In this document: positions 8,883 through 20,955 of the stretch, piece after piece
Layout: every line of letters begins with the position of its first letter
How positions within the stretch are numbered: position 1 is the stretch's first letter
Assembly: GCA_963700855.1 (NCBI GenBank)
Contig: CAVOYV010000005.1
Location: 70,206 to 134,205, forward strand
DNA: 64,000 nt
Reading direction: 5' to 3'
Source: an uncultured Actinomycetes bacterium
GTDB lineage: Bacteria > Actinomycetota > UBA4738 > HRBIN12
Translations under genes and position numbers: made by a program
The notes under the pieces: model-generated
Database searches by the model: none
Told to the model about the DNA's origin: nothing
The model's input: the letters and a program-made list of their open reading frames with translations, nothing else

Positions 8883-10567
8883 CTATGCGAGACCTGGATC
8901 CGCCACATGAGGGGCCCGGCGACGGATGTCGGCGGCGACGGACCGGGTCGCCAGCACGATCAAGTGGTTGCGAGCACGAGAGCTCCCGACGCGCAGGTAG
9001 CGCCCGACGTCCTCTCGGTGTCGATCGCCGAGTTCGGCCAGGATCACCACGGGTCGCTCGAGACCCTTGAACCCGTGCACGGTCGACCACAGGACGGTGC
9101 CGTCCTCGACCACGTCGGACAAGACGTAGGGGCCGATCGCACGCCGACGCCACAGGAGGCTCTTCTCGCGCCCCGGCGGCGTCAGGACCACGATGTCGTC
9201 GAGCGCGAGCCCCTCCGAGTCGATCAGGTTCTTCAAGACGACCTCGAGCGTTCGCACCAGCCCGTCCTCTCCGTCGTAGTCGAGGACGTCGACGTCCCGG
9301 CCGGCAGGACCCTTCGCGATCCCCGCGCGTGATCCGGACTCGAAGAACACCGAGACGAACTCCGCGATCGCGCGCGTGTTCCGCAGGTTGTGCGGGAGCG
9401 GCGGCAGGACATCGGTGGGGTCGAGGGGGAGCTCCCCGCCCTCGTAGAGGACCTGGGAGTCATCGGAGAACAGGTAGAGCAGGCCCCGGTCCGGCTCACG
9501 ATGGAGCGCGAGCAGGGCGGGCCACCACCAGGCGCGGAAGTCTTGCGCCTCGTCGACCACGATCGCGCCGTACCGAGGACCGAGCGTCCGCGCCGCCCGC
9601 TCCAGGAGCTCGGGAAGGCGCTCCTCGTAGTACGTGCGGTCGTCCGATCCCGTCGGCGCGGGCACGACGAGACCGGCCTCACGAGCCAGATCGGCACAGA
9701 GCTCGTGGAAGTGGGCGACGTGGAGGTTCTCGACCCCGTCGACGCTGGCTCGCAGGTGCGCGGCAAGCCTGACGTTGAAGCAGGTCAGCAAGGTGGGTCG
9801 ACCAGCCTCGGCCAAGGTGCGCGCGATCGAGGTCGCGAGCAGCGTCTTTCCCGACCCCGGCGGCCCCGTCACCACCGCGCGTGTGCGGTTCAGCACGAAG
9901 GCCTTCGTCCAGGCCTGCTCGTCGGTGAGCTCGACGATCGTGCGGTCCTCTTCGCGGAACAGGAGTTTGAGCGGGTCCGCACCTCGACGGCTGCGCCGAG
10001 CGCCTGCTCGACCGCGAGCATGCCCGACTCGCCGAAGCGCCGGCCCTCGTGGCGCCAGGTGCGCATCACCTCGCGCACCCGGGCTTGCAGGTGATCGAGG
10101 TCGTCACGGTCGATCACGACCGCAGCCGGGGCGCCCGGGTGCGCGTCGCGCCCGTAGATCGCATGCGGCATCGCCACCGAATACCCGAACGAAGGACGCC
10201 ACCTCGACCAGCCCGCCCGCGCCTCCAAGATCCGCACGAGGGAATGCATCTCGTCGCGGGCTTGATGGAACGGATCCTCGTCGAGCTCGTGTCGGCCGCT
10301 GCGACCCCCCTGGGTCCAGCGCCGAGTCTGGGGGTCGTACGTGAGCTCTCCCCCCTTCGCCTCGATCACCAGGAGCCCGTCGACGGGGTGGATCACGACG
10401 AAGTCCGCCTCGCCTTGCTCCAGGCGTCCGTTACGACCGGCGAGCGCCCAATCGACCGAGTGGAAGATCACGTACTCATCGTCGAGTTGCTCCATGAATG
10501 CCTCGTAGAGGAGACGCTCCGCGGAGCTCTCGGTGTGGAGCATGGGGAACGGCACCATCCGCGCCAC
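8883..10567 (-). pseudogene. NERD (PD-(D/E)xK nuclease-related) domain fused to an SF1 UvrD-like helicase. One frame break at about 9980.
   Basis: The N-terminal piece 10567->~9980 carries GEADFVVIHPVDGLLVIEAKGG (a D...ExK nuclease motif). The C-terminal piece reads ...PLKLLFREEDRTIVELTDEQAWTKAFVLNRTRAVVTGPPGSGKT (Walker A), VVDEAQDF (Walker B), HGFKGLERPVVIL, RARNHLIVL. The two pieces join around gtgcggacccgctc. Confidence 0.75.
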
Positions 10568-10628: not shown

Positions 10629-11297
10629 ATGGCGCAACGTTCCCCAGTTCTCGTCGTGCTGTTGATCGCAATCCTGGTCGGATACGTGGCGGGTGGGCGG
10701 CTTCGGCGATTCGACCAGATACACATCCACTGGTGGGCCCTGGCCTTCAGCGGTGTGGCGCTTCAGATGCTCCCCGCTCCGAACATCGCAGGCATCGATT
10801 CCGGCACCACAGGAGCAGCCCAGCTGACCTTGTCCTACAGCCTGCTCCTGGTCTTTCTCATCGTGAACAGGTGGATTCCCGGTTCTCGCGTGATGGCCCT
10901 GGGGCTGCTGCTCAATCTCGCTGTCGTCTCCCTGAATGGAGGGATGCCAGTGAGCGCTGAGGCTATCCAGCGGGCAAGCGGATCGAGCCAACGCCCAACA
11001 ACCGAGACGAGCGCGAAGCACCATCTCCTTACAGAGGAGGACCTACTATCACCGCTTGGTGACGTGATTCCCGTGCCGCCACCGGCAGGAGTCGTTCTAT
11101 CCGTCGGTGACCTCTTGTTGTACGGAGGGATGGCGTGGTTCGTGATTCAGGTCATGCGGGGACGGAGTCGCGTGAACCCTCGGCCGTTGGCGGTGTGGTT
11201 CCCGAAGTACCGGGGGAAGCACGCTCCGGATCACTGGAGGATGCCTGCCCGCTATCGAGTGTCTGCTCACGCTGAAGCAGGGCAGTCGGGAACCTGA
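10629..11297 (+). CDS. DUF5317-like integral membrane protein
   Basis: 222-aa ORF with several TM helices. The NGGMPVS and SVGDLLLYGG motifs match my memory of the DUF5317 family. GAGGA lies 9 nt upstream of the ATG. The C-terminal about 45 aa overlap the convergent kinase gene and may not be real. Confidence 0.6.
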   Translation: MAQRSPVLVVLLIAILVGYVAGGRLRRFDQIHIHWWALAFSGVALQMLPAPNIAGIDSGTTGAAQLTLSYSLLLVFLIVNRWIPGSRVMALGLLLNLAVVSLNGGMPVSAEAIQRASGSSQRPTTETSAKHHLLTEEDLLSPLGDVIPVPPPAGVVLSVGDLLLYGGMAWFVIQVMRGRSRVNPRPLAVWFPKYRGKHAPDHWRMPARYRVSAHAEAGQSGT

Positions 11298-12678
11298 CGG
11301 TGACGGTGGTTCCCTCTCCCGGAGCTGATTGCACGTCGAGGGAGCCTCCGCCCACTTTCGCCCGCTCCCGCATCATTGCCATACCGTAGTGTCCTTCAGG
11401 GCCTGGCGCGGAGGTGTCGAAGCCGATCCCGTTGTCTCGCAATCGCAGGACGATTTCGTCTGCTTCCTCAGCCACGCTGATCCACATATCGGTCGCTTGG
11501 GCATGCTTGAGGGCGTTCATGACACCCTCCCTCGCGACGTGGTAGACAAGCAATGCAATCGGCGCGGGAAGTGGGACCTCCTCCACGTCGCGGTGAAACA
11601 CTACGCCGGAGTCGCGGCCAACTTCGTCAGTGAAGGACTCCAAGGCCTCCGACAACCCCTTCGCGCCAAGCGGTGAGCGGTGGAGATCACGGATAAGCGC
11701 CCGGATCCTGTCGGAGGTGTCCTGCTTGGACTCCCTAATCTTCTCCAGCTGGGCCTCGAGTTCCCGCAGGTCGCCCTTCTCAAGCATCTTTCGCGCGATG
11801 TCAACCTGGAGACTCAGCCTGAAGAGAACCTGGGCAAGATCGTCGTGCAGATAGCCAGCGATCTTCAGTCGCTCGTCGGCCCTCTCTTCCGCCATCGTGT
11901 TGGAGAGCTCACGCAGGATCTCCTCTCGCTCTTGAAGCTCCTTGTGGGCCGCTTCTAGAGCGTGGGTGCGCCGGAACATTTGGCGTGCAAACAGCAGCGG
12001 GGCCAGCACCACAAAGACCGAGAGGAAGCCCAATTGTCCAACTTCGAACAACTTCGCCATCGCCGCACCGAGCACCCCAAGGCCCATGTAGCTGACCAGG
12101 AACTCCTGGCCCTTGGACAGCTGCCGAACGACGGCCAGCGGCGAGAGGCGGTAGATGAGACTGACGAGCACCGCCACGAGGCTGATATTGATTGCGTAGT
12201 CAACAGCCGAGGCGAGTAGAGAGGCCACTGTCAACCAGCCGATGGCCAACTCGACTGGTTCTTGCGGCGTAGCGAGCGAATGAAGAACTGAACTCCCGGC
12301 CCATACTGCGAGCGCCACCTGACATCTGTTGAACACCGCCGTGAGCGGAGCTATCTCTCGCCGATACTCCCGAGGATCCGAGGATCCGAGGAGTGCGGCC
12401 AGGGCCGCTGCGACCGGCGCGTAGAGAATCGCAACGGAAATGAGCAGTGGGAACCCGAGGCCCACTTGGACACCTCGCCACGCGGGCGCGGGCAGCAGTT
12501 CCACGACGGCCACGAGGAGAATCCAAATCGGTAGCTCAGCGATGAGGACGCTGGGATCTCGGGCAATCTCAAACGCCAAGCCACCCAAGGTCGGCACGAT
12601 CACAGCCAGCGCGAAGAGAGAGGCTGCGTTCGGAGCCAGCAGCCGCATGGGGCGTTGCGATGGCTGCGCTTGTGCCAT
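11152..12678 (-). CDS. Membrane sensor histidine kinase, HisKA_3 (NarL-type) class, paralog 1
   Basis: Polytopic N-terminal domain, coiled-coil linker, H-box YLHDDLAQVL, N-box EGVMNALKHAQA, DNGIGF, GMAMMRERAKVGGGSLDVQSAPGEGTTVTVRFP. The start at 12678 (MAQAQPSQRPMRLL) has GGGAGGA immediately upstream. The maximal ORF reaches 12840 but would run through a dense operator-like repeat region. Confidence 0.8.
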   Translation of the reverse strand: MAQAQPSQRPMRLLAPNAASLFALAVIVPTLGGLAFEIARDPSVLIAELPIWILLVAVVELLPAPAWRGVQVGLGFPLLISVAILYAPVAAALAALLGSSDPREYRREIAPLTAVFNRCQVALAVWAGSSVLHSLATPQEPVELAIGWLTVASLLASAVDYAINISLVAVLVSLIYRLSPLAVVRQLSKGQEFLVSYMGLGVLGAAMAKLFEVGQLGFLSVFVVLAPLLFARQMFRRTHALEAAHKELQEREEILRELSNTMAEERADERLKIAGYLHDDLAQVLFRLSLQVDIARKMLEKGDLRELEAQLEKIRESKQDTSDRIRALIRDLHRSPLGAKGLSEALESFTDEVGRDSGVVFHRDVEEVPLPAPIALLVYHVAREGVMNALKHAQATDMWISVAEEADEIVLRLRDNGIGFDTSAPGPEGHYGMAMMRERAKVGGGSLDVQSAPGEGTTVTVRFPTALLQREQTLDSGQASSSDPERASPGTSGTTPPTAEGSRDSVPA

Positions 12679-12828
12679 TCCTCCCGATTTGACCACGCGA
12701 ATGGGGACAACAGCATCAGCCATTCCCGGGATATGGGCCGATACTCCATACGGCGTAGCGCGAAGGAGGACCTTGTCCCCCAGATAGGGGTCCCCCGATA
12801 CTTCGCCCGTGTCCCCTAACCGGGGAGC

Positions 12829-12850
12829 CGCCGGGGTCATGACCCCGGCG
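12829..12850. promoter_or_regulatory. Perfect 22-bp palindrome, candidate operator between kinase 1 and micro-ORF 1
   Basis: CGCCGGGGTCA|TGACCCCGGCG. I checked every one of the 11 base pairs by hand. It lies 34 nt upstream of the micro-ORF 1 ATG. Confidence 0.35.
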
Positions 12851-12883
12851 CACTACAACGAATAGGACGAAAGGGGCCAGACA

Positions 12884-12970
12884 ATGAAGCTCCTCAAGCG
12901 GCTCGCAATCGCCGTTGGATCGCTGACCGCCCTCGTATTGGCTGGTGGCGCGCACTTCAAAGCCGGCTGA
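12884..12970 (+). CDS. Micro-ORF 1, a 28-aa hydrophobic/signal-peptide-like peptide: MKLLKRLAIAVGSLTALVLAGGAHFKAG
   Basis: ATG at 12884 and TGA at 12968-12970, with AAAGGGG about 8 nt upstream. It is a paralog of the micro-ORF at 17049..17138, with only synonymous differences over the last 10 codons. Not in the ORF track because it is under 60 aa. Confidence 0.6.
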   Translation: MKLLKRLAIAVGSLTALVLAGGAHFKAG

Positions 12971-12991
12971 ACGGACCAACCGCAGAGCTGA

Positions 12992-13025
12992 GGCGGCCCG
13001 GCGCTCTGGTCGGGCCGTTTCGCTT
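12992..13025. terminator. Hairpin with T-rich tail between convergent micro-ORF 1 and the SARP-family gene
   Basis: CGGCCCG (12994-13000), a 10-nt loop, CGGGCCG (13011-13017), then TTTCGCTT. Confidence 0.4.
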
Positions 13026-13063
13026 GTCTGGATCACTCGCCCAGTCAGTTGCGTAGTCGCTCG

Positions 13064-16000
13064 CTAGCCGGATAGCTTCCGAGTCCTCTCCAGGGCACCC
13101 TCCGACACGCCCTTGCGCGCGAAGAGTTCACGCGAAAGACCGAGTTCCTTGTCGGCGGCCTCTTGGTCACCCACATCCGAGAGCAGCCTCGCGGCATCTA
13201 GGTGAACCGAAGCTGCCATGGCTAGGAAGTCCGTCCTATCCGCGATTGCAGCCGCCTCCAGAATCAATGAGATGGCGGCTTCCGAATCTCCACGCCCTGC
13301 ATGAAGATTCGCCTGTACCTGGCGCCAAAGAAGTTGAGACGCCCAGTCGTCGTCTGCGGCGAGGCTGCGGCTCTTGTCGGCGGCCGCAGCGGCGAGTTCG
13401 TAGTCGCCCACGCGAAACCATGCCTCCCCGAGGAATCCCTCAACAGTGGACCGGAGGTTGCTTTCCCCCATTTGCGTGAGACGAGTGGCAGATCTCGTGA
13501 GGAGTGCGGCTGCGGCAGCGGGCTCTCGGAGCGCAAGGTGAGTAAGGCCCGCGTAGAGTTCGGCATCCGCCACGCGGAAGGCGCCGCCCACCTCTCGTGC
13601 AAGGCCAAGCCCTTCCTCAAGTCGGCCTCGTGCCCCCGCCTCATCGCCCAGAAGCGCCAGGGCGTATGCCAGCCTCATCACCACCTCGGGGCGGGGTCGA
13701 CGGGTGGGGTTGGACAGCAACTGCTGGCACTGAGCAATGAAGACCGGCAGTGGAGTGGTCCCGTGTAACGCCATGAGTTGCTGCGGGAGATCTACCTCGC
13801 GTTCGTCACCCGCCTCTAACGCGAGCCGCGCACCGTGTTCGAATGCCTCGATTCCTTCATCGAGGCGACCCTGAAGCGTCTGAGCCTCTCCGAGAAGCCG
13901 GTACGCACGCGCGAGACCCGCAAGATCGCCGAGCGAGGACAAGGCCGACACAGCGGCTTCAGCGAATGCCTGGGTCTCAGCAGCCCCGCGCTCCTCCGGG
14001 CGCGTGTAGACGTCGAGCTCCATCAGCTCAATCTCCAGCCTCCACCGGAGCGCTTCATCTCCTGATTCCCTTGACGCGGCAAGTCCGGTGGTAAGTACCT
14101 CTCGCGCCTCATCGAATCGTCCGAGGTCGAAGAGTGCAGCGCCGCGAAGACGTGCAAGATCGCCTCGAAGGTGTTGATCTGATGTCGCACATGCCAGCGC
14201 GCGCTCGAAGAGACTGGCAGCCGCCGTTGCGTCATCGAGCGCGAAGGCCCGTCGACCTGCCGCAGCGAGATGTCCTGCGGCGGCCAAGCCGATCGCGACT
14301 CCATGGCTCCCGTCAGAAGTACCAAGGTGGTACGCCGATTCGAGGTGGAAGCCGATTGTCTCTTCGACCTCGGTGAGTCTGTCCCCAGCCCGATCCGCCA
14401 GCGAAGTCCCTAGCCGCTCATGATCACGAGCTCGCCGATCCCTAGGAATGGCGCTGTAAGCCACGTCACGGATCAGGAGGTGCCTGAATGCGTAGGCACT
14501 GCTTCCCCGGCTTGTGAACCTCCGAAGATCAAGAAGACCCCGCCTACACAGAGAATCAAGAGCTCCGACAAGATCGTCCATCGCGAGATCGGGTCGAACA
14601 TCTCCCAGATCATCCAGGTCGAACTCCCGCCCGACGACGGCAGCGGCTTCAAGGGTATCCCGCTCAGCTCGTGGCAGGAGGTCAACTCGGGCATCAAGCA
14701 AAGCCTTCACGGTCGGCGGAATTGGAACCACACTCAGGTCCTTGGTCGCCTCCCACCGGCCTTCCCGCTGGTGAAGGTGCCCATCGTCGATCAGGACCGA
14801 AAGCACTTCCTCGAGGAATAGCGGATTCCCTTCTGTTGCGCTGGTTATCCGCTCTCTCACAGCCAGGCTCAGGTCACTCGGGCCAAGGAGGCCGCTGAGC
14901 AGCTCGTCCATTTCGGCAGACGTAAGGGGCTCAAGTCGCACGGTCACCGCGTCGGATCCGGCCCCACCCCACGACGGCCTGCGTTCGTCAAGTTCTGGAC
15001 GGGCGCTGCAGACCAGGACGAGGGGTTCACCCACTACGGTGGACGCGACGTACCCGACAAGATCGAGTAGAGGCTTTTCAGCCCACTGAAGATCCTCCAG
15101 AACCGCAACAAGTGGTTGGCGGCGAGCCCCAATTGCAAGGCAGCGCCGTATGGCCCAGAACGTTTCGTCTCGCGTCGAGGACCCATCCGCTACCCCGATG
15201 AAGGCCCCAAGAAGGTCAACCAGCATCTCCCGATCCAGCTCGTTGGCGCTGAACTCCTCGAGTCGACGACGCGCCTCCGAAGCCGCTCGCCCTTCTTCTA
15301 TTCCCACGACACCTCGAACAACGTCGGCGAACGGAGACAGACCCACGTCGCGACCGTATGGAACGCACCGCCCTGCCACGACGTCGACGCGATCGCCAAG
15401 CCCTGCCGTGAACGCCTCGATCAAGCGGGACTTCCCGATGCCGGCAGGACCAAGGACGGCAAGCATTGTCGGGCGCCGGTCTACTATCGCTCGCTGGGCG
15501 GCGTCCCGCAGTCTGACCAGATCACTCTCGCGCCCGATCAGCGGGGCCGAGAGCCGTGGAGCGGCGCGTGTGTCGGCAACATCTCGAAGTCGATAAGCCA
15601 CGAGGGGAGCCTCGTCGTCGTCAATCACAAGAAGCTGCGTCGAATCAACCGCAGCGACAGCACCGGCGAGTCTCAGGGTGGCTACGCCGAGCAGCACCTC
15701 ACCGGGACGGGCCTTTCTGGCCAGGAGGTCGGCAACTTCAACCGGATCATGCGTCAGAAGCCGAACGTCGCTGCCTATCTCAACTAGGACCTCGCCTGTC
15801 GACACGCCCAGACGTACCTCAAGGCCGAGCGCGGCCGCTGCTCGCTTGAGGGCATCGGCCGTTCGAACCGCCCGCTCTGCGTCGTCCTCGTGAACCGCAG
15901 GCAATCCGAATACGCCAAGAAGGCGGCCCGAGCGAGCTGTAGGACACCAACCGTCGAGGTTGGAGACGGCACCCCCGAACAAGTCCGAGATGGCGGTCGT

Positions 16001-16933
16001 AGCTGCCAGGACGTCTTCTGGATCCCCCTTGGGCAGTCGGAGGGCCACGACGGTGACAGTCTTCCGGACCTCACGAGGCTCCACCGCAGGAGGGGCCGCC
16101 TGCATCAGATCCGGGTCCCCCGCGAGTATCCTCCGCTCCAACTCCCCAATAGCCAGACCCGGCTCCATCCCGAGCTGCTCTGACAAATCCCGACGAAGCG
16201 AAGCGAGTTCGGCAAGCGCGTCTGCCTGCCGACCGCTGCGATACAGCGCAAGAGCAGAGAGCTCGCAGATGCGTTCGTCCAGTGGCAGTTCAGCGCGGAG
16301 ACGTAGCAAGTTGGGCAAGGCCTCGGCGTGTTGGCCGAGCGCAAGTTCAGCCTCGCAACTGAGAACAAGCGTCAGGTCGCGCAGGTCTTCCAGCTCACGT
16401 AGGGAACCGGGAGCTAGGCCTGGGAGATCCAGGCCGGCAAGCGGGGCTCCCCGCCACATGGCGCTGGCCTGGCGGAATGCCTCGAGCGCTCGCTCCGTCG
16501 AGCCCTGGGCGAGTAGTTCGCGTCCTTCCTCGACGAGATCTCGGAAGGCAGATGCATCCACTTGATCACGGTCAACAACGAGGGAGTACGCGGAGCCATT
16601 TGTTGCCAGCGCGTCGGAGAATCCCGCGCCTTTGAGGACTGAGCGAATCTTGGAGATATGGACCTGAAGCGAGGTCCTGACTGTGGGAGGCGGGTTGTCA
16701 CCCCAGACGATGTCGATGAGGGTCTCGGCGGCGATCTCCCTGCCCTCCTGCATCACCAGTACAGCGAGAACCGCCTGGACTCGAGGACCACCTACCGCGA
16801 GTTGCCTCCCGTTCACTCGCAGCTCGAGAGGGCCCAGGATGCCGTAATGGACTGACTGATCCACGTGCCCTCCCTGTGGGGCGTCGGCGCCATCAAGTGG
16901 CCGACGGGCCGCACTATCAACGACCCAGGACAC
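13064..16933 (-). CDS. Large multidomain regulator: OmpR-type wHTH + BTAD (SARP), degenerate class III cyclase-homology domain, P-loop STAND/AAA ATPase, C-terminal TPR-like repeats
   Basis: YGILGPLELRVNGRQLAVGGPRVQAVLAVLVM...IDIVWGDNPPPTVRTSLQVHISKIRSVL is wHTH. AMWRGAPLAGL...LALYRSGRQADALAELASLRRDLSEQLGMEPG is BTAD. VTVVALRLP...RLLGVFGLPAVHEDDAERAVRTA...RLGVSTGEVLV is cyclase-like. VLGPAGIGKSRL is the P-loop, and LVAVLEDLQWAE follows. About 450 aa of helical repeats come after. The likely true start is the GTG at 16864 (GGGAGGG 3 nt upstream, giving VDQSVHYGILGPLEL). Confidence 0.85.
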   Translation of the reverse strand: MSWVVDSAARRPLDGADAPQGGHVDQSVHYGILGPLELRVNGRQLAVGGPRVQAVLAVLVMQEGREIAAETLIDIVWGDNPPPTVRTSLQVHISKIRSVLKGAGFSDALATNGSAYSLVVDRDQVDASAFRDLVEEGRELLAQGSTERALEAFRQASAMWRGAPLAGLDLPGLAPGSLRELEDLRDLTLVLSCEAELALGQHAEALPNLLRLRAELPLDERICELSALALYRSGRQADALAELASLRRDLSEQLGMEPGLAIGELERRILAGDPDLMQAAPPAVEPREVRKTVTVVALRLPKGDPEDVLAATTAISDLFGGAVSNLDGWCPTARSGRLLGVFGLPAVHEDDAERAVRTADALKRAAAALGLEVRLGVSTGEVLVEIGSDVRLLTHDPVEVADLLARKARPGEVLLGVATLRLAGAVAAVDSTQLLVIDDDEAPLVAYRLRDVADTRAAPRLSAPLIGRESDLVRLRDAAQRAIVDRRPTMLAVLGPAGIGKSRLIEAFTAGLGDRVDVVAGRCVPYGRDVGLSPFADVVRGVVGIEEGRAASEARRRLEEFSANELDREMLVDLLGAFIGVADGSSTRDETFWAIRRCLAIGARRQPLVAVLEDLQWAEKPLLDLVGYVASTVVGEPLVLVCSARPELDERRPSWGGAGSDAVTVRLEPLTSAEMDELLSGLLGPSDLSLAVRERITSATEGNPLFLEEVLSVLIDDGHLHQREGRWEATKDLSVVPIPPTVKALLDARVDLLPRAERDTLEAAAVVGREFDLDDLGDVRPDLAMDDLVGALDSLCRRGLLDLRRFTSRGSSAYAFRHLLIRDVAYSAIPRDRRARDHERLGTSLADRAGDRLTEVEETIGFHLESAYHLGTSDGSHGVAIGLAAAGHLAAAGRRAFALDDATAAASLFERALACATSDQHLRGDLARLRGAALFDLGRFDEAREVLTTGLAASRESGDEALRWRLEIELMELDVYTRPEERGAAETQAFAEAAVSALSSLGDLAGLARAYRLLGEAQTLQGRLDEGIEAFEHGARLALEAGDEREVDLPQQLMALHGTTPLPVFIAQCQQLLSNPTRRPRPEVVMRLAYALALLGDEAGARGRLEEGLGLAREVGGAFRVADAELYAGLTHLALREPAAAAALLTRSATRLTQMGESNLRSTVEGFLGEAWFRVGDYELAAAAADKSRSLAADDDWASQLLWRQVQANLHAGRGDSEAAISLILEAAAIADRTDFLAMAASVHLDAARLLSDVGDQEAADKELGLSRELFARKGVSEGALERTRKLSG

Positions 16934-16962
16934 CGTAGCCCGAAATGCAGAGTCTGTTTAGA

Positions 16963-16984
16963 CCCCTTTAGGTCCCCTTTTAGG
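16963..16984 (+). promoter_or_regulatory. Two direct repeats, CCCCTTTAGG and CCCCTTTTAGG, 11 nt start-to-start, upstream of micro-ORF 2. Candidate SARP-type box.
   Basis: Repeat 1 is 16963-16972 and repeat 2 is 16974-16984. A -10-like CAGAAT (16994-16999) lies 9 nt downstream of repeat 2, and the ATG of micro-ORF 2 is at 17049. Confidence 0.3.
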
Positions 16985-17048
16985 GGCGCAAAGCAGAATC
17001 GCCTCACAAGCCCCAAGAGACCGGGGCCGACAAGAGGAGGAGGCGGAC

Positions 17049-17138
17049 ATGCTCAAGACCATCCGGCGGATCGCTCTCGCCCTTGGCTCCCTGGCAACCC
17101 TGGCTCTGGCGGGCGGCGCGCACTTCAAGGCTGGCTAA
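17049..17138 (+). CDS. Micro-ORF 2, a 29-aa hydrophobic/signal-peptide-like peptide: MLKTIRRIALALGSLATLALAGGAHFKAG
   Basis: ATG at 17049 and TAA at 17136-17138, with a strong SD GAGGAGGAGG ending 6 nt upstream. Paralog of micro-ORF 1. Not in the ORF track because it is under 60 aa. Confidence 0.6.
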   Translation: MLKTIRRIALALGSLATLALAGGAHFKAG

Positions 17139-17213
17139 GCTACGAGGCAATCTGCCGCGCCAGGGCATCCCTTCGTCGGGAAGCAATCCATATCTGGCGG
17201 GGACACGTGAGAA

Positions 17214-17257
17214 GGGCCGGTCGCGGCGTCTGCAGTTGGAGATGCCGAGACCGGCCC
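17214..17257. terminator. Long imperfect hairpin between convergent micro-ORF 2 and kinase 2
   Basis: GGGCCGGTC (17214-17222) pairs with GACCGGCCC (17249-17257). An inner GGCGTCT/AGATGCC pairing extends the stem. There is no clear T-tract. Confidence 0.3.
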
Positions 17258-17283
17258 TGACTACGCAGACGAGAGCTCTCGGG

Positions 17284-18702
17284 TCAGAGGCGTGGCTTGA
17301 ACCACGCTTCGACGTGAGTGCCACCTCCTGGGCTCGTTCGAACTTCTATTGATCCGCCAGTTGCTTCGGCTCTTTCTCCCATGAGATCGAGTCCGAAGTG
17401 CCGAACATCCCGATCGCGCTCTGGGTCAAATCCCTTGCCATTGTCGGAAACGGTTAGTGAAACCAAGCCGTCCGTACTCCTCAAATCTACCCATGCCTTG
17501 TCCGCGCCAGAGTGGCGCGCCACATTCGTGAGGGCCTCTCGCAGAACCTGATAGATGAGTAGCTCTACTGCTGGGTCGGCTCGCACCGAAGAATCGATGT
17601 CGGACGATATGTCGATCCCGGTCTCGTCATGTACATGAGCTACGAACAGAGATGCGGTTTCCACAAGGCCAGCGTGCCCAACCGGTGACTGCCGGAGACC
17701 GAAGATAACCTCACGAAGGAGAGCCGCGGCCTTCTCTGCCGTCTCGACGACAGCAGGCACGTCCTTCTCGAGATCCAGCAGACGGCCACTTCGGTAGTCC
17801 TGGCGAATGACATGGGCGTGGAGAGTCACTGTGTAGAGAGCCTGCAGCACGTCGTCGTGTAGAGCCTCGGAAATCCGATTCCTCTCGTCTCGCCGCTCAT
17901 CGGCGATGCGTTCGTCAACGCGCATGAGCGCGGCTCCCCTCCGCCGCAACTGCAAGCTGATCCGTTCAAGTCGGTGCGAGTTCAAGAAGACCTGCCTGGC
18001 CAAGGCCACAGGGGCCACAGCTGCGACCAGCGAAACTGGGCCTACGGCCGCGTAGGCTTCAGCAATGAGCAGCCCCGTCAGGGCGAAGCACAAGTAGTGC
18101 GCGGCGAACGCGCCAGGGGAACCGATGTACATCTCCTTGACGACGTCTCGGAGAGCCCGCCGATTGGACACCGACGAGAAGAGAGCAACGCTTGCGTAGT
18201 TGACTGCCGTGTCAGCCACGATAGCTGCGATGGCGGCAGCCAAGGAGACGGGCCACTGCCCAACCTCACCCCCAAGCCAGACGAAGGTGAAGCCAGCGGC
18301 TAGAACGCTAAGGCTCGTCTGTGAGTGATTCCACACTGCCTTTGACAATGCGATCCTCCCCCGCAACTCCGCCTGCGTCGTCGCAGCGACAAGCGCCACT
18401 GCTCCCGCCGGGATCGGGCCGAGAACGAAGGAACACGCGAGCAGAACGGGCAGATCCATCGACAGCGCGGGTCTCGTGCTTCCAAGCGAGACAGTCGCGA
18501 ATGCGGCCGCGGCAGTAGCCACCATCCAGATAGCCAGCTCCCCACCCGCGGCAGGACGCAGGCCCGGATTCAAGTAGACGCCAAGGAGGACGAGGGAAAC
18601 CGCTAGAACCGCACCGACCACGGCCATCAGTCGCACGGTCCAACTCTCCGGTGAGGGCGTTGGCTGTCCCTTGACTCTCGCGTGATCGGTCGTCGCCGAC
18701 AT
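17284..18702 (-). CDS. Membrane sensor histidine kinase, HisKA_3 (NarL-type) class, paralog 2
   Basis: Same architecture as kinase 1: polytopic N-terminus, H-box ALHDDVLQAL, N-box REALTNVARHSGA, DNGKGF, GLDLMGERAEATGGSIEVRTSPGGGTHVEAWF. The start at 18702 (MSATTDHARVKGQ) has GGGGGGAG 3 nt upstream. The maximal ORF extends to 18810. Confidence 0.8.
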   Translation of the reverse strand: MSATTDHARVKGQPTPSPESWTVRLMAVVGAVLAVSLVLLGVYLNPGLRPAAGGELAIWMVATAAAAFATVSLGSTRPALSMDLPVLLACSFVLGPIPAGAVALVAATTQAELRGRIALSKAVWNHSQTSLSVLAAGFTFVWLGGEVGQWPVSLAAAIAAIVADTAVNYASVALFSSVSNRRALRDVVKEMYIGSPGAFAAHYLCFALTGLLIAEAYAAVGPVSLVAAVAPVALARQVFLNSHRLERISLQLRRRGAALMRVDERIADERRDERNRISEALHDDVLQALYTVTLHAHVIRQDYRSGRLLDLEKDVPAVVETAEKAAALLREVIFGLRQSPVGHAGLVETASLFVAHVHDETGIDISSDIDSSVRADPAVELLIYQVLREALTNVARHSGADKAWVDLRSTDGLVSLTVSDNGKGFDPERDRDVRHFGLDLMGERAEATGGSIEVRTSPGGGTHVEAWFKPRL

Positions 18703-18833
18703 GTTCTCCCCCCTCGGTCGGCCCTGTGTGAGCAGCGCCTCGCCAGATGCGTTCTTGTAAAGCACGCGGTCGCTCACAGACAAGACCTCGGGGAGCAGAA
18801 AGAGCGACAAGTTCGGGCAGTACCATCGGCGGC

Positions 18834-19523
18834 ATGAAGCCCCGCGTGCTGCTCGTCGAGGACGAGGAGGCGATCTCCGAACCGCTCGCCGAACTCCTCG
18901 CTCGCGAGGGGTTCGATCCCGAGGTCGCGCCTACGCTCGACGCCGCCGGGCGAGCGCTCCACGCGAACCCACCGGACCTCGTGCTCCTCGACGTGATGCT
19001 GCCCGACGGCGACGGTCGCGAATTCGCCCGCGATATCCGCAAGACCTCGGACGTGCCGATCGTGATGCTCACCGCTCGGGGGGAGGAGATCGACCGGATC
19101 GTCGGCCTCGAGCTCGGCGCGGACGACTACGTCGTGAAGCCGTTCAGTGCCCGCGAGCTGATCGCGAGGATCCACGCGATCCAACGGCGCGGGCGGGGCA
19201 CGGCGCGCCGAGGCACGATCGAGATCGGCGATCTCCAGCTCGACCCGGCCGCCCGCACGTGCACCAAGGGAGGCCAACCGCTCGAGCTTGCCGCGAAGGA
19301 GTTCGATCTGCTCCACATGCTGATGACCGCAGCCGGCACGGTCCTGACCCGAGAGCAGATCATGGACGAGGTGTGGGACCCGCACTGGTTCGGACCGACG
19401 AAGACCCTCGATGTCCACGTCTCGTGGCTCCGGAAGAAGATCGAGGACGATCCCACGGCGCCTCGCTACATCACGACCGTGCGGGGTGTGGGGTTCCGGT
19501 TCGCAACCGTCGAGGACCTCTGA
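18834..19523 (+). CDS. OmpR/PhoB-family response regulator
   Basis: MKPRVLLVEDEEAI...DLVLLDVMLPDGDG...VVKPF is a receiver domain. LELAAKEFDLLHMLM...LDVHVSWLRKKIE...ITTVRGVGFRF is wHTH. Confidence 0.9.
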   Translation: MKPRVLLVEDEEAISEPLAELLAREGFDPEVAPTLDAAGRALHANPPDLVLLDVMLPDGDGREFARDIRKTSDVPIVMLTARGEEIDRIVGLELGADDYVVKPFSARELIARIHAIQRRGRGTARRGTIEIGDLQLDPAARTCTKGGQPLELAAKEFDLLHMLMTAAGTVLTREQIMDEVWDPHWFGPTKTLDVHVSWLRKKIEDDPTAPRYITTVRGVGFRFATVEDL

Positions 19524-19557
19524 GCGGGCTGGCTGGGCAGGAAGGAGACGGGACCCG

Positions 19558-20955
19558 ATGCGTCCGATGCGGCTCCGATCCCGGCTCGTGCTCGCCTTCG
19601 CCTACATCCTGCTCGCGGTGCTCGTCGCGCTCACCGTGCCCCTCGCCGTCAACCTCGCACGCCGCGATCAGGCCCGCCTCGAGACCGACACCCTCCTGAC
19701 GGCGCAGACGCTCGCCGCCTACGTGGGCGCCGAGAACCTCACGGACCTCGATCGCCTCCAGGTGATCGCCGACGCCGCCCCACCGGAGATCGAGCGTGTC
19801 GTGATCATGGGCCTCGACGGCGTCGTGGTCTACGACTCCTCGGGAGGGTCGGTCGGCGCCAACTTCGCGAACGGGCGCCGTCCCGAGGTCGACGAGGCGC
19901 TGCGAGGCTCCCCGAACGCCGAGGTCCGCTACAGCCAGACCGAGGCGCGGAACATCCTGGTGGCCGCCGCGCCGATCATCGACGAAGCTCAGGTCGGTGC
20001 GATCCGGCTCACCCGCGACTTCACCGAGGTCGACGATGCTCGGCGGCAGAGCGTCATCGGGCTGAGCGCGATCGGGGTCGCGGCGCTCGGCGCGGGGGTC
20101 TTGATCGCGTTCGGTCTGGCCGGATCGCTCAGCGAGCCGATCCAGCGGCTCGCGACGACCGCGCGCCGGCTCGGGGGTGGTGATCTCTCCGCCCGCACCG
20201 GCGATGTCGCCGGCAGCGCGGAGGTTCAGGAGCTGGCCGGCTCCTTCGACGAGATGGCCGACCGGCTCGAGCGCGCGGTTCAGGCGCAACGCGAGTTCGT
20301 GGCGAACGCCTCGCATCAGCTCAGGACCCCGCTCACGGGGATGAAGCTGCGGCTCGAGACGGCGGCAGCCGACGCGCCGCCGGGCGACCTCCGCCACCAG
20401 ATCGAGGCGGCGGAACGGGAGGTGGACCGGCTCTCGGCGATCGTGGACCGACTGCTCGCGGTGTCACGCGACATCGAGCGTGGCGTGCCGACCGAGGTCG
20501 AGCTGGGCGACGCCGTCCGCCGCGCGGTCGATCGGTGGTCGGAGCGGGCCAAGCGTAGGGACAGCACCTTGGTCGTCGCCGGACGAACCGCCGCCGTTCA
20601 GGCGAACCCCACCGACGTCGACCAGATCCTCGACAACCTGCTCGACAACGCCCTCGCCTACGCCCCGGGCACGGTCGAGATCGAGACGGGGACGTCGGAT
20701 GGGCGCGCGTGGCTGAGCGTCCGCGACCACGGACCCGGCATCCCCGCGGCGGAACACGAACGCGTCCTCGAGCGCTTCTCCCGGGGGCAGGCCGCCCCGC
20801 CGGGCGGTTCCGGGCTCGGCCTGGCGATCGCTCGAGAGCTGGCGCAGAAGTGGGGCGGTGACCTGACGATCTCCGATCCCCCGGACGGTGGCACATCGAT
20901 CAGGGTCCAGCTCCGGACCGCGACCGAGCCCCACCCACCCGAGGAGAGCCCATGA
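19558..20955 (+). CDS. Sensor histidine kinase (2 TM, HAMP, HisKA, HATPase_c), partner of the OmpR-type regulator
   Basis: MRPMRLRSRLVLAFAYILLAVLVALTV (TM1), H-box FVANASHQLRTPLTG, N-box LDNLLDNALAYAP, DHGPGIP, GGSGLGLAIAREL. GGAGA lies upstream of the ATG at 19558. Confidence 0.85.
   Translation: MRPMRLRSRLVLAFAYILLAVLVALTVPLAVNLARRDQARLETDTLLTAQTLAAYVGAENLTDLDRLQVIADAAPPEIERVVIMGLDGVVVYDSSGGSVGANFANGRRPEVDEALRGSPNAEVRYSQTEARNILVAAAPIIDEAQVGAIRLTRDFTEVDDARRQSVIGLSAIGVAALGAGVLIAFGLAGSLSEPIQRLATTARRLGGGDLSARTGDVAGSAEVQELAGSFDEMADRLERAVQAQREFVANASHQLRTPLTGMKLRLETAAADAPPGDLRHQIEAAEREVDRLSAIVDRLLAVSRDIERGVPTEVELGDAVRRAVDRWSERAKRRDSTLVVAGRTAAVQANPTDVDQILDNLLDNALAYAPGTVEIETGTSDGRAWLSVRDHGPGIPAAEHERVLERFSRGQAAPPGGSGLGLAIARELAQKWGGDLTISDPPDGGTSIRVQLRTATEPHPPEESP

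Follow-up and report, generated by a model that had tools for sequence, protein, structure and literature searches.

A conserved but degenerate class III cyclase-homology domain in a SARP/STAND regulator of an uncultured actinomycete

We analyzed a 64,000-nucleotide stretch of DNA (hereafter the window) from an uncultured Actinomycetes bacterium (GenBank assembly GCA_963700855.1, contig CAVOYV010000005.1), centering on a large regulator gene encoded on its reverse strand. The maximal open reading frame (ORF) spans positions 13064-16933 (-) and holds 1289 codons, and residue numbers throughout refer to this maximal ORF (P0001). The true start is probably the GTG at 16864, yielding a product of 1266 amino acids (aa), because this codon has a GGGAGG Shine-Dalgarno sequence 4 nt upstream, lies six codons ahead of a conserved (F/Y)GILGPLE motif in the same arrangement as in orthologues, and would bring the protein into line with homologues of 1265-1272 aa, whose Walker A motifs fall about 22 residues earlier than in the maximal ORF. 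From N- to C-terminus, the protein comprises a winged helix-turn-helix (wHTH) and BTAD domain that together form a SARP head, a degenerate class III cyclase-homology domain (CHD, residues ~288-452), an AAA_16 STAND ATPase, and a TPR region. The features within the gene are as follows.

13064-16864, reverse strand: the regulator gene (SARP, pseudo-cyclase, AAA_16 STAND, TPR), within a maximal ORF reaching 16933, its start set by homologue starts
16124-16786, reverse strand: SARP module, a Trans_reg_C wHTH (residues 50-106) and BTAD (residues 125-270), from Pfam, PDB and NCBIfam
15578-16072, reverse strand: degenerate class III CHD (residues ~288-452), from phmmer, alignments, profiles, AlphaFold2 (AF2) and Foldseek
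16037-16039, reverse strand: codon of R299 at the position of the first metal Asp, followed by a 7-residue deletion, from alignments; invariant in the clade
15926-15940, reverse strand: T332 (substrate Lys position) through G336 (second metal Asp position), within WCPTARSGRLL, from alignments
15725-15739, reverse strand: E399 (transition-state Asn position) through L403 (transition-state Arg position), within HDPVEVADLL, from alignments; E399 is invariant in the clade
15038-15544, reverse strand: AAA_16 STAND NTPase (residues 464-632), Pfam E=2.2e-17, 64.5 bits against a cut-off of 32.6
13067-14245, reverse strand: TPR or helical-repeat sensor region, with Pfam TPR at residues 897-1037 and the remainder helical to the C-terminus

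The domains flanking the CHD are readily assigned. Pfam places the head in the SARP family (Trans_reg_C at 27.7 bits against a cut-off of 26.2; BTAD at 111.9 bits, E=4.4e-32), and in the PDB it matches AfsR (8hvr, E=8.7e-34) and EmbR (2fez, E=5e-27). The AAA_16 domain keeps both its Walker A (GPAGIGKS, K501) and Walker B (LEDLQW, D614) motifs and is followed by a helical/TPR sensor, as in STAND proteins of the MalT/LAL type; individual TPR matches at residues 897-1037 fall below curated cut-offs, and homologues carry TPR_12 or TPR_MalT. The NCBIfam model TIGR03903, for a TOMM kinase/cyclase fusion, aligns to residues 337-863. Pfam finds neither GerE/LuxR nor NB-ARC anywhere in the protein, and the NCBIfam AfsR model NF053617 scores only 154 bits against a cut-off of 1430, aligning to residues 18-286 alone, so that the protein has neither the NB-ARC NTPase nor the equivalog score of the AfsR subfamily.

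Cyclase homology and catalytic positions

Between BTAD and AAA_16 lies a stretch of about 190 aa (residues 271-463) in which Pfam detects no PF00211, either in the whole protein at E<=1 or in the isolated segment at E<=10. Despite this miss, sequence comparison and modeling indicate that the segment is a class III CHD, and we regard the homology as secure because several approaches agree. By phmmer, the segment has five matches in the PDB, all of them class III cyclases (Rv1900c, E=0.002; Cya2, E=0.0095), and 6410 matches at E<=1e-3 among 1.84 billion representative proteins, 371 of them at <=1e-10. Five matches without a SARP head were checked: four, of about 950-1000 aa, combine PF00211 with AAA_16 and are matched in their N-terminal part, and the fifth (P0125, 595 aa) has PF00211 only. 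One of the four, P0124, is matched by the segment at E=1e-19 and itself carries PF00211 at E=3.9e-21. MAFFT alignments with nine in-genome paralogues, all of which carry PF00211, and with Pfam-detectable cyclase members of the family are collinear across the whole domain. A profile built from 34 family segments finds Cya2 in the PDB (2w01, E=6e-31, over positions 5-178 of 198), and a profile from ten sequences of the degenerate clade alone finds only cyclases there (E=3.7e-4 to 6.6e-3). The AF2 model on the family alignment is confident (predicted local distance difference test, pLDDT, 92; predicted template modeling score, pTM, 0.87) and shows a mixed alpha/beta strand-helix pattern, for which the top 50 Foldseek matches in the PDB are all class III cyclases, Cya2 (2w01) being the best at E=1e-14 and a template modeling (TM) score of 0.76-0.78. 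The family profile also matched PDB entry 6yii, which is labeled ‘Transcriptional regulator’ but is actually the Pycsar cyclase PaPycC; the match has no bearing on the present case. The sequence-only reading of this DNA had recognized a cyclase-homology domain by eye, and both the searches and the predicted fold bear it out; of the Pfam profiles it had named for a search, BTAD, Trans_reg_C, AAA_16 and TPR are found and Guanylate_cyc (PF00211) is missed.

Catalytic positions were assigned against the in-genome paralogues, canonical family members and a HMMER alignment to Cya2, the canonical motifs being F-x-D-[LV]-x-x-S-T, E-K-F-I-G-D, R-[IV]-G-[IV]-N-T-G-E-V and T-G-D-x-V-N-x-A-x-R-L. In the window protein, the first metal Asp is replaced by R299, and the seven residues that follow are deleted, removing the phosphate-binding loop. 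The substrate Lys has become T332, the second metal Asp G336 (with R337 next to it), the Asn of the NTG motif S378, the transition-state Asn E399 and the transition-state Arg L403, and the beta4 Arg is kept as R374. The domain has the cyclase-homology fold, by AF2 and Foldseek, and lacks what catalytic class III enzymes use: the two metal Asp with their phosphate loop, the Lys that defines the substrate, and the Asn and Arg of the transition state. Two nearby acidic motifs, GDPE and HEDDA, are not shifted catalytic residues, since canonical members conserve both motifs equally and have their own metal Asp pair as well. From these alignments, catalysis by the CHD is very unlikely.

These results largely agree with the sequence-only reading, which had aligned three motifs to the catalytic sites and called the domain apparently dead. 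All three alignments hold, as do the loss of the first metal Asp and the change of the transition-state Asn to Glu, to which the loss of the transition-state Arg can be added. That reading had the second metal Asp replaced by Arg; the Asp is indeed lost, but the aligned residue is G336 and the Arg is its neighbor. The possibility it had raised of a metal-binding pair at shifted positions finds no substitute in GDPE or HEDDA.

Loss of the catalytic residues has not been accompanied by loss of constraint. Within a clade of 16 proteins (P0001-P0016), whose identity to the query is 50-76% across residues 1-500, the stretch searched, no part of the protein is better conserved than the CHD, which has a mean pairwise identity of 67%, compared with 58% for the wHTH, 59% for BTAD, 59-62% for the NTPase and 55% for the TPR region. 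Ten CHD sequences that are 60-84% identical to the window copy share 47 invariant columns, R299 and E399 among them. Such strong conservation, extending to the very residues that replaced catalytic ones, suggests purifying selection on a new role rather than decay, and argues for the dead CHD being functional. The sequence-only reading had proposed dimerization or ligand sensing as its role; what the analysis shows of any such role is this strong constraint.

Paralogues and the wider family

The same 2.5-Mb, 82%-complete assembly encodes nine paralogues with the architecture CHD (PF00211)-AAA_16(-TPR), found by a genome search.

L030-L038: paralogue loci at G000:C1:549396, C7:133421, C5:280526, C1:529687, C3:26045, C5:278121, C1:140603, C1:107317 and C4:61359

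The paralogues are 32-38% identical to the query; three match from residue ~283-285, and for the others the match begins somewhere between ~302 and ~337. PF00211 is present in every one of the nine (E=1e-9 to 1e-24), with AAA_16 after it, and in several a zinc ribbon (DZR) takes the N-terminal place of the SARP head. Most keep the catalytic D/K/D/N/R set by alignment. For the copy at L033, the match to the cyclase model is confined to the C-terminal two-thirds of that model, and the copy at C1:106604-108450 appears split in two pieces. By its domain content, this set is a marked expansion of cyclase-STAND signaling proteins, and its catalytically intact members offer natural controls, in the same genome, for an enzyme's evolution into a scaffold.

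Beyond this genome, the layout is widespread. A search with residues 1-500 returned at least 2541 matches at E<=1e-3, and nearly all of those listed cover 95% of the searched stretch in proteins of 1200-1300 aa. Among the 120 matches listed, 49 have a precomputed PF00211 assignment, and none of the 17 closest does. A further search from a Nonomuraea gerenzanensis homologue gave at least 6807 matches at E<=1e-20, including cultured Nonomuraea, Actinomadura and Actinoplanes. That homologue (NZ_LT559118.1; L043 5842-9690, forward strand) has the order SARP, cryptic CHD, AAA_16 and TPR, with BTAD at residues 143-284, AAA_16 at 499-665, and PF00211 absent from the 215-residue gap between them. The SARP-CHD-AAA_16-TPR family (~1230-1300 aa) therefore numbers thousands of proteins, from Actinomycetota, Chloroflexota, Rokubacteria and other groups, which NCBI names ‘BTAD domain-containing putative transcriptional regulator’ and JGI frequently labels ‘class 3 adenylate cyclase/DNA-binding SARP family transcriptional activator’.

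Most members have a degenerate CHD, and catalytic degeneration recurs across this family. The full D-K-D-N-R set is kept in 6 of 117 members, and 21 more retain D-K-D..R but have another residue in place of the Asn; on a FastTree tree of the NTPase region, the D-K-D..R state (27 of 116 sequences) requires at least 11 changes, so that degeneration must have happened repeatedly. The window's own fully degenerate clade is narrow: in a library clustered at 50% identity it amounts to one cluster at <=1e-30 and a second at 48% identity. Among 185,579 species representatives there are no close relatives, the best being 34-36% identical, and no Streptomyces members. The clade shares its architecture with the database family but differs in that some family members are detectable by PF00211 or fully catalytic, whereas members of the clade are all degenerate and have their own invariant replacements. 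The architecture, then, is a common but uncharacterized variant of large SARP/STAND regulators of the SARP-LAL kind. What is new, and well supported by alignment and modeling, is a complete, constrained and apparently catalytically dead cyclase fold in this position, within a family in which that fold is recurrently degenerate.

A putative operator and its surroundings

The region upstream of the regulator contains a candidate binding site for its SARP head, and both sides of the gene carry small genes and kinases.

16955-16983, reverse strand: three direct repeats, CTAAAAGGGGA, CCTAAAGGGGT and CTAAACA, with an 11-12 bp period; a putative SARP operator, conserved upstream of orthologues
17049-17138, forward strand: divergent 29-codon micro-ORF, MLKTIRRIALALGSLATLALAGGAHFKAG, with a strong Shine-Dalgarno sequence; also found beside orthologues at loci L001, L002, L003, L004 and L042
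12884-12970, forward strand: paralogous 28-codon micro-ORF, MKLLKRLAIAVGSLTALVLAGGAHFKAG, with a Shine-Dalgarno sequence
11152-12840 and 17284-18810, both reverse strand: HisKA_3 histidine kinases flanking the regulator, from Pfam
18747-19523, forward strand: OmpR/PhoB-type response regulator, the only adjacent one, paired with a HAMP/HisKA kinase at 19411-20955 (forward strand)

The triple repeat lies within the 185-bp divergent region between the regulator and the micro-ORF at 17049-17138, and its (C)TAAA(A)G pattern occurs only once in the 2.5-Mb assembly. Related TAAAG repeats, again with an 11-12 bp period, lie upstream of six orthologues (L001, L002, L003/4, L039 and L042) and are kept at orthologous genes even where the neighboring gene differs. 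Peptides ending in AGGAHW(K/R)xG adjoin orthologous regulator or kinase genes in L001, L002, L003, L004 and L042; the micro-ORF peptides have no NCBIfam match. From its sequence and position, the micro-ORF at 17049-17138 is likely a co-regulated target that encodes a membrane peptide. At L040, upstream of the gene for P0015, a more distant orthologue, the region ~2380-2440 has no TAAAG repeats and instead contains ATAGCCG twice, 22 bp apart, upstream of a -10-like hexamer, TAGGCT. The ATAGCCG pair may be a diverged operator.

Within about 8 kb, the neighborhood includes MPAB_Lcp_cat, helicase/NERD, DUF5317, the HisKA_3 kinases, the OmpR-type regulator with its HAMP kinase, an Rv2466c-like gene and TerC, and the HisKA_3 kinases, DUF5317 and MPAB are common to orthologue loci. 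No NarL/LuxR-type response regulator lies near the HisKA_3 kinases. A NERD-domain ORF (9890-10567) and an AAA/UvrD_C helicase-like ORF (8883-9896), both on the reverse strand, overlap by a few bases and sit between MPAB_Lcp_cat and DUF5317, a position from which the pair is absent in L001.

The genes between ~10.6 and 18.8 kb (DUF5317, a kinase, a micro-ORF, the regulator, the second micro-ORF and the second kinase) have a GC content at third codon positions (GC3) of 0.64-0.71, compared with 0.87-0.95 elsewhere in the window. Orthologues at L001, L002, L003, L039 and L040 have host-like GC3 values of 0.81-0.92, the whole gene set is likewise host-like in L001 and L002, and the closest relative, L042, has a GC3 of 0.66 for the orthologue and 0.66-0.74 for the gene set, on a contig of 63% GC. 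A recent transfer of this low-GC3 island is ruled out by its nucleotide identity of 65-74% to the nearest loci. Judging by composition and synteny, it appears that a syntenic module was replaced here long ago by the copy of a relative with lower GC.

Proposed mechanism and comparison with known systems

With moderate confidence, we interpret the protein as a STAND-switched SARP activator that probably acts on the triple repeat near its own gene, its pseudo-cyclase having become a structural or dimerizing relay. The ancestral CHD works only as a dimer. Such a regulator would make no cAMP or cGMP. A signal sensed by the TPR region would permit nucleotide-dependent oligomerization, as in STAND proteins of the MalT/AfsR type, and the pseudo-cyclase, as a dimerizing or spacing module, would convert oligomerization of the NTPase-TPR part into correctly spaced SARP heads on tandem repeats. 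Two or three heads bound there could then recruit RNA polymerase. The probable target, from its sequence and placement, is the triple (C)TAAAG repeat between the gene's own promoter and the divergent 29-codon gene; the outcome would be activation of the regulator's own promoter, of the micro-ORF, or of both, with autoregulation recalling PimR and its three heptamers at an 11-bp period. As to origin, a SARP head may have been fused to a CHD-AAA_16-TPR protein like the nine in-genome paralogues, with catalysis lost afterwards.

Several observations weigh against this interpretation. Loss of activity, dimerization and DNA binding are all deduced from sequence. A sigma-70 consensus scan of positions 12800-17300 found no promoter, and the distance from the repeats to a -10-like hexamer varies among orthologous loci. 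No biosynthetic genes lie within about 8 kb, unlike the case of characterized SARPs, and the orthologue loci are similar in this respect. A test for co-variation between a basic residue at the first metal Asp position and an acidic one at the Asn position, on an NTPase-based tree, had only 3-4 independent changes to draw on and so no power. Moreover, the dimers of class III cyclases have two-fold symmetry, whereas SARP heads line up head-to-tail along direct repeats, and this mismatch means that a simple dimerizing role would need flexible linkers.

Other roles for the domain are conceivable, and they share much of the same evidence. The degenerate sites of heterodimeric class III cyclases are regulatory pockets, the forskolin site of mammalian adenylyl cyclases being the obvious analogy, and the rebuilt pocket of the window protein (R299, G336-R337, H396-D397 and E399) might likewise bind a small molecule and modulate the STAND switch allosterically. 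Clade-invariant substitutes in the pocket, the exceptional conservation of the CHD and a fold kept with high confidence in the AF2 and Foldseek analyses are what a ligand sensor would be expected to show; however, the deleted phosphate loop and the absence of both metal ligands make canonical nucleotide binding unlikely, the TPR region already gives the protein a dedicated sensor, and we consider this role unlikely overall. We attach a lower probability to the idea that the former active site was rebuilt as a new surface, in which R299 of one subunit and E399 of the other form reciprocal salt bridges that act as a constitutive or switchable dimer lock and set the geometry of the SARP heads, or in which the same surface pairs with the nine paralogues and wires transcription to cAMP signaling. 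Pairing with the intact CHDs of those paralogues, so as to silence a partner cyclase or to tether the regulator to cyclase complexes, is also improbable in its own right, and somewhat more so. A class III active site takes residues from both subunits, the query lacks both sets of half-site residues, and nine potential partners at 32-38% identity over CHD and NTPase are encoded in a 2.5-Mb genome. Yet the paralogues are unlinked to the locus, the orthologues travel with the operator and micro-ORF rather than with a cyclase gene, and an identity of about 35% does not suggest a co-evolving interface.

At the extremes, the segment might have no function at all or might retain its original one. That it is a decaying remnant, a mere linker, would fit the loss of all catalytic residues, its invisibility to Pfam and the frequency of degeneration in the family; against this stand a CHD identity of 67% where other domains reach 55-62%, the 47 invariant columns and the pLDDT of 92, and we regard decay as very improbable. 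Continued cyclase activity through non-canonical or shifted residues seems scarcely credible. Asp residues do lie nearby (GDPED and HEDD), and some class III cyclases, such as Rv0386, tolerate unusual substrate-defining residues, but GDPE and HEDDA also occur in canonical members alongside their Asp pair, the phosphate loop is deleted, and substitutions affect all five core positions, in two cases giving the opposite charge (Asp to Arg, Arg to Leu and Asn to Glu being the changes listed).

In actinomycetes, large SARP/STAND regulators govern both antibiotic production and development, and how their central and C-terminal parts gate the head is poorly understood. In the regulator described here, a cyclase fold appears to have been kept without its chemistry, under constraint exceeding that of any other domain, and similar degeneration recurs family-wide. 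This yields a testable hypothesis of signal relay, in which a pseudo-enzyme serves as an oligomerization module. On the improbable reading of the former active site as a new surface, the repeated catalytic loss seen among thousands of SARP-CHD-STAND proteins would single out the cyclase fold as a general oligomerization relay of STAND transcription factors, and a vestigial domain might have been overlooked in SARP-LAL antibiotic regulators. The published view that these merely ‘resemble guanylate cyclases’ merits re-examination. The case is a clean one of enzyme-to-scaffold evolution rather than a new kind of system.

Comparison with characterized regulators places the protein among several partial likenesses. 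A literature search found no experimental study of the SARP-CHD-AAA_16-TPR layout, and nothing on BTAD combined with Guanylate_cyc or on a SARP pseudoenzyme cyclase. The AfsR protein of Streptomyces coelicolor, known from complexes with RNA polymerase (8hvr, 8jke and 8k60), has a homologous SARP head and shares the logic of SARP, STAND NTPase and TPR. Its NTPase, however, is of the NB-ARC type (PMC10972967), whereas Pfam assigns the one here to the AAA_16 (MalT/LAL) type, and AfsR has no cyclase-fold insert. The large SARPs examined from Streptomyces plasmids are likewise of the NB-ARC type and without a CHD, with ~35-70 residues from BTAD to the P-loop. Proteins of the Rv0386 type and the CHD-AAA_16-TPR proteins have the same order of CHD, AAA_16 and TPR. 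The regulator differs from the Rv0386 type, with its C-terminal LuxR HTH and active N-terminal cyclase, in having no GerE domain and no catalytic residues, DNA binding being assigned to the N-terminal SARP head; it differs from the CHD-AAA_16-TPR paralogues in that its CHD has lost all the catalytic residues that they keep. The sequence-only reading had seen a hybrid of the AfsR and Rv0386 layouts. As a description of a SARP head on an Rv0386-like CHD-AAA_16-TPR body without LuxR, this stands; as a claim of novelty it does not, given the large existing family and the precedent of the published SARP-LAL class.

That class, whose prototype is PimR and which includes PteR/FilR, ScnRI, SanG and PolR (PMC3367932, PMC5930380, PMC10972967), offers the closest comparison. 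Its members share an N-terminal SARP head and a C-terminal ‘guanylate cyclase / LAL’ ATPase half without a LuxR HTH (PMC3367932, PMC10972967), and the protein here, set beside the published description of the class, likewise has a SARP head and a LAL-type ATPase half without LuxR. The operators are also alike in geometry: that of PimR consists of three heptamer direct repeats with 4-bp spacers (PMC5930380), an 11-bp period, and the one proposed here of three (C)TAAAG repeats at 11-12 bp. SARP-LAL activators are situated in biosynthetic clusters, whereas this regulator is not. Finally, the SARP-LAL literature reports that a cyclase signature is lacking and describes no cyclase-fold domain, whereas the regulator here is predicted to hold a complete, folded and catalytically dead CHD between its BTAD domain and its ATPase.

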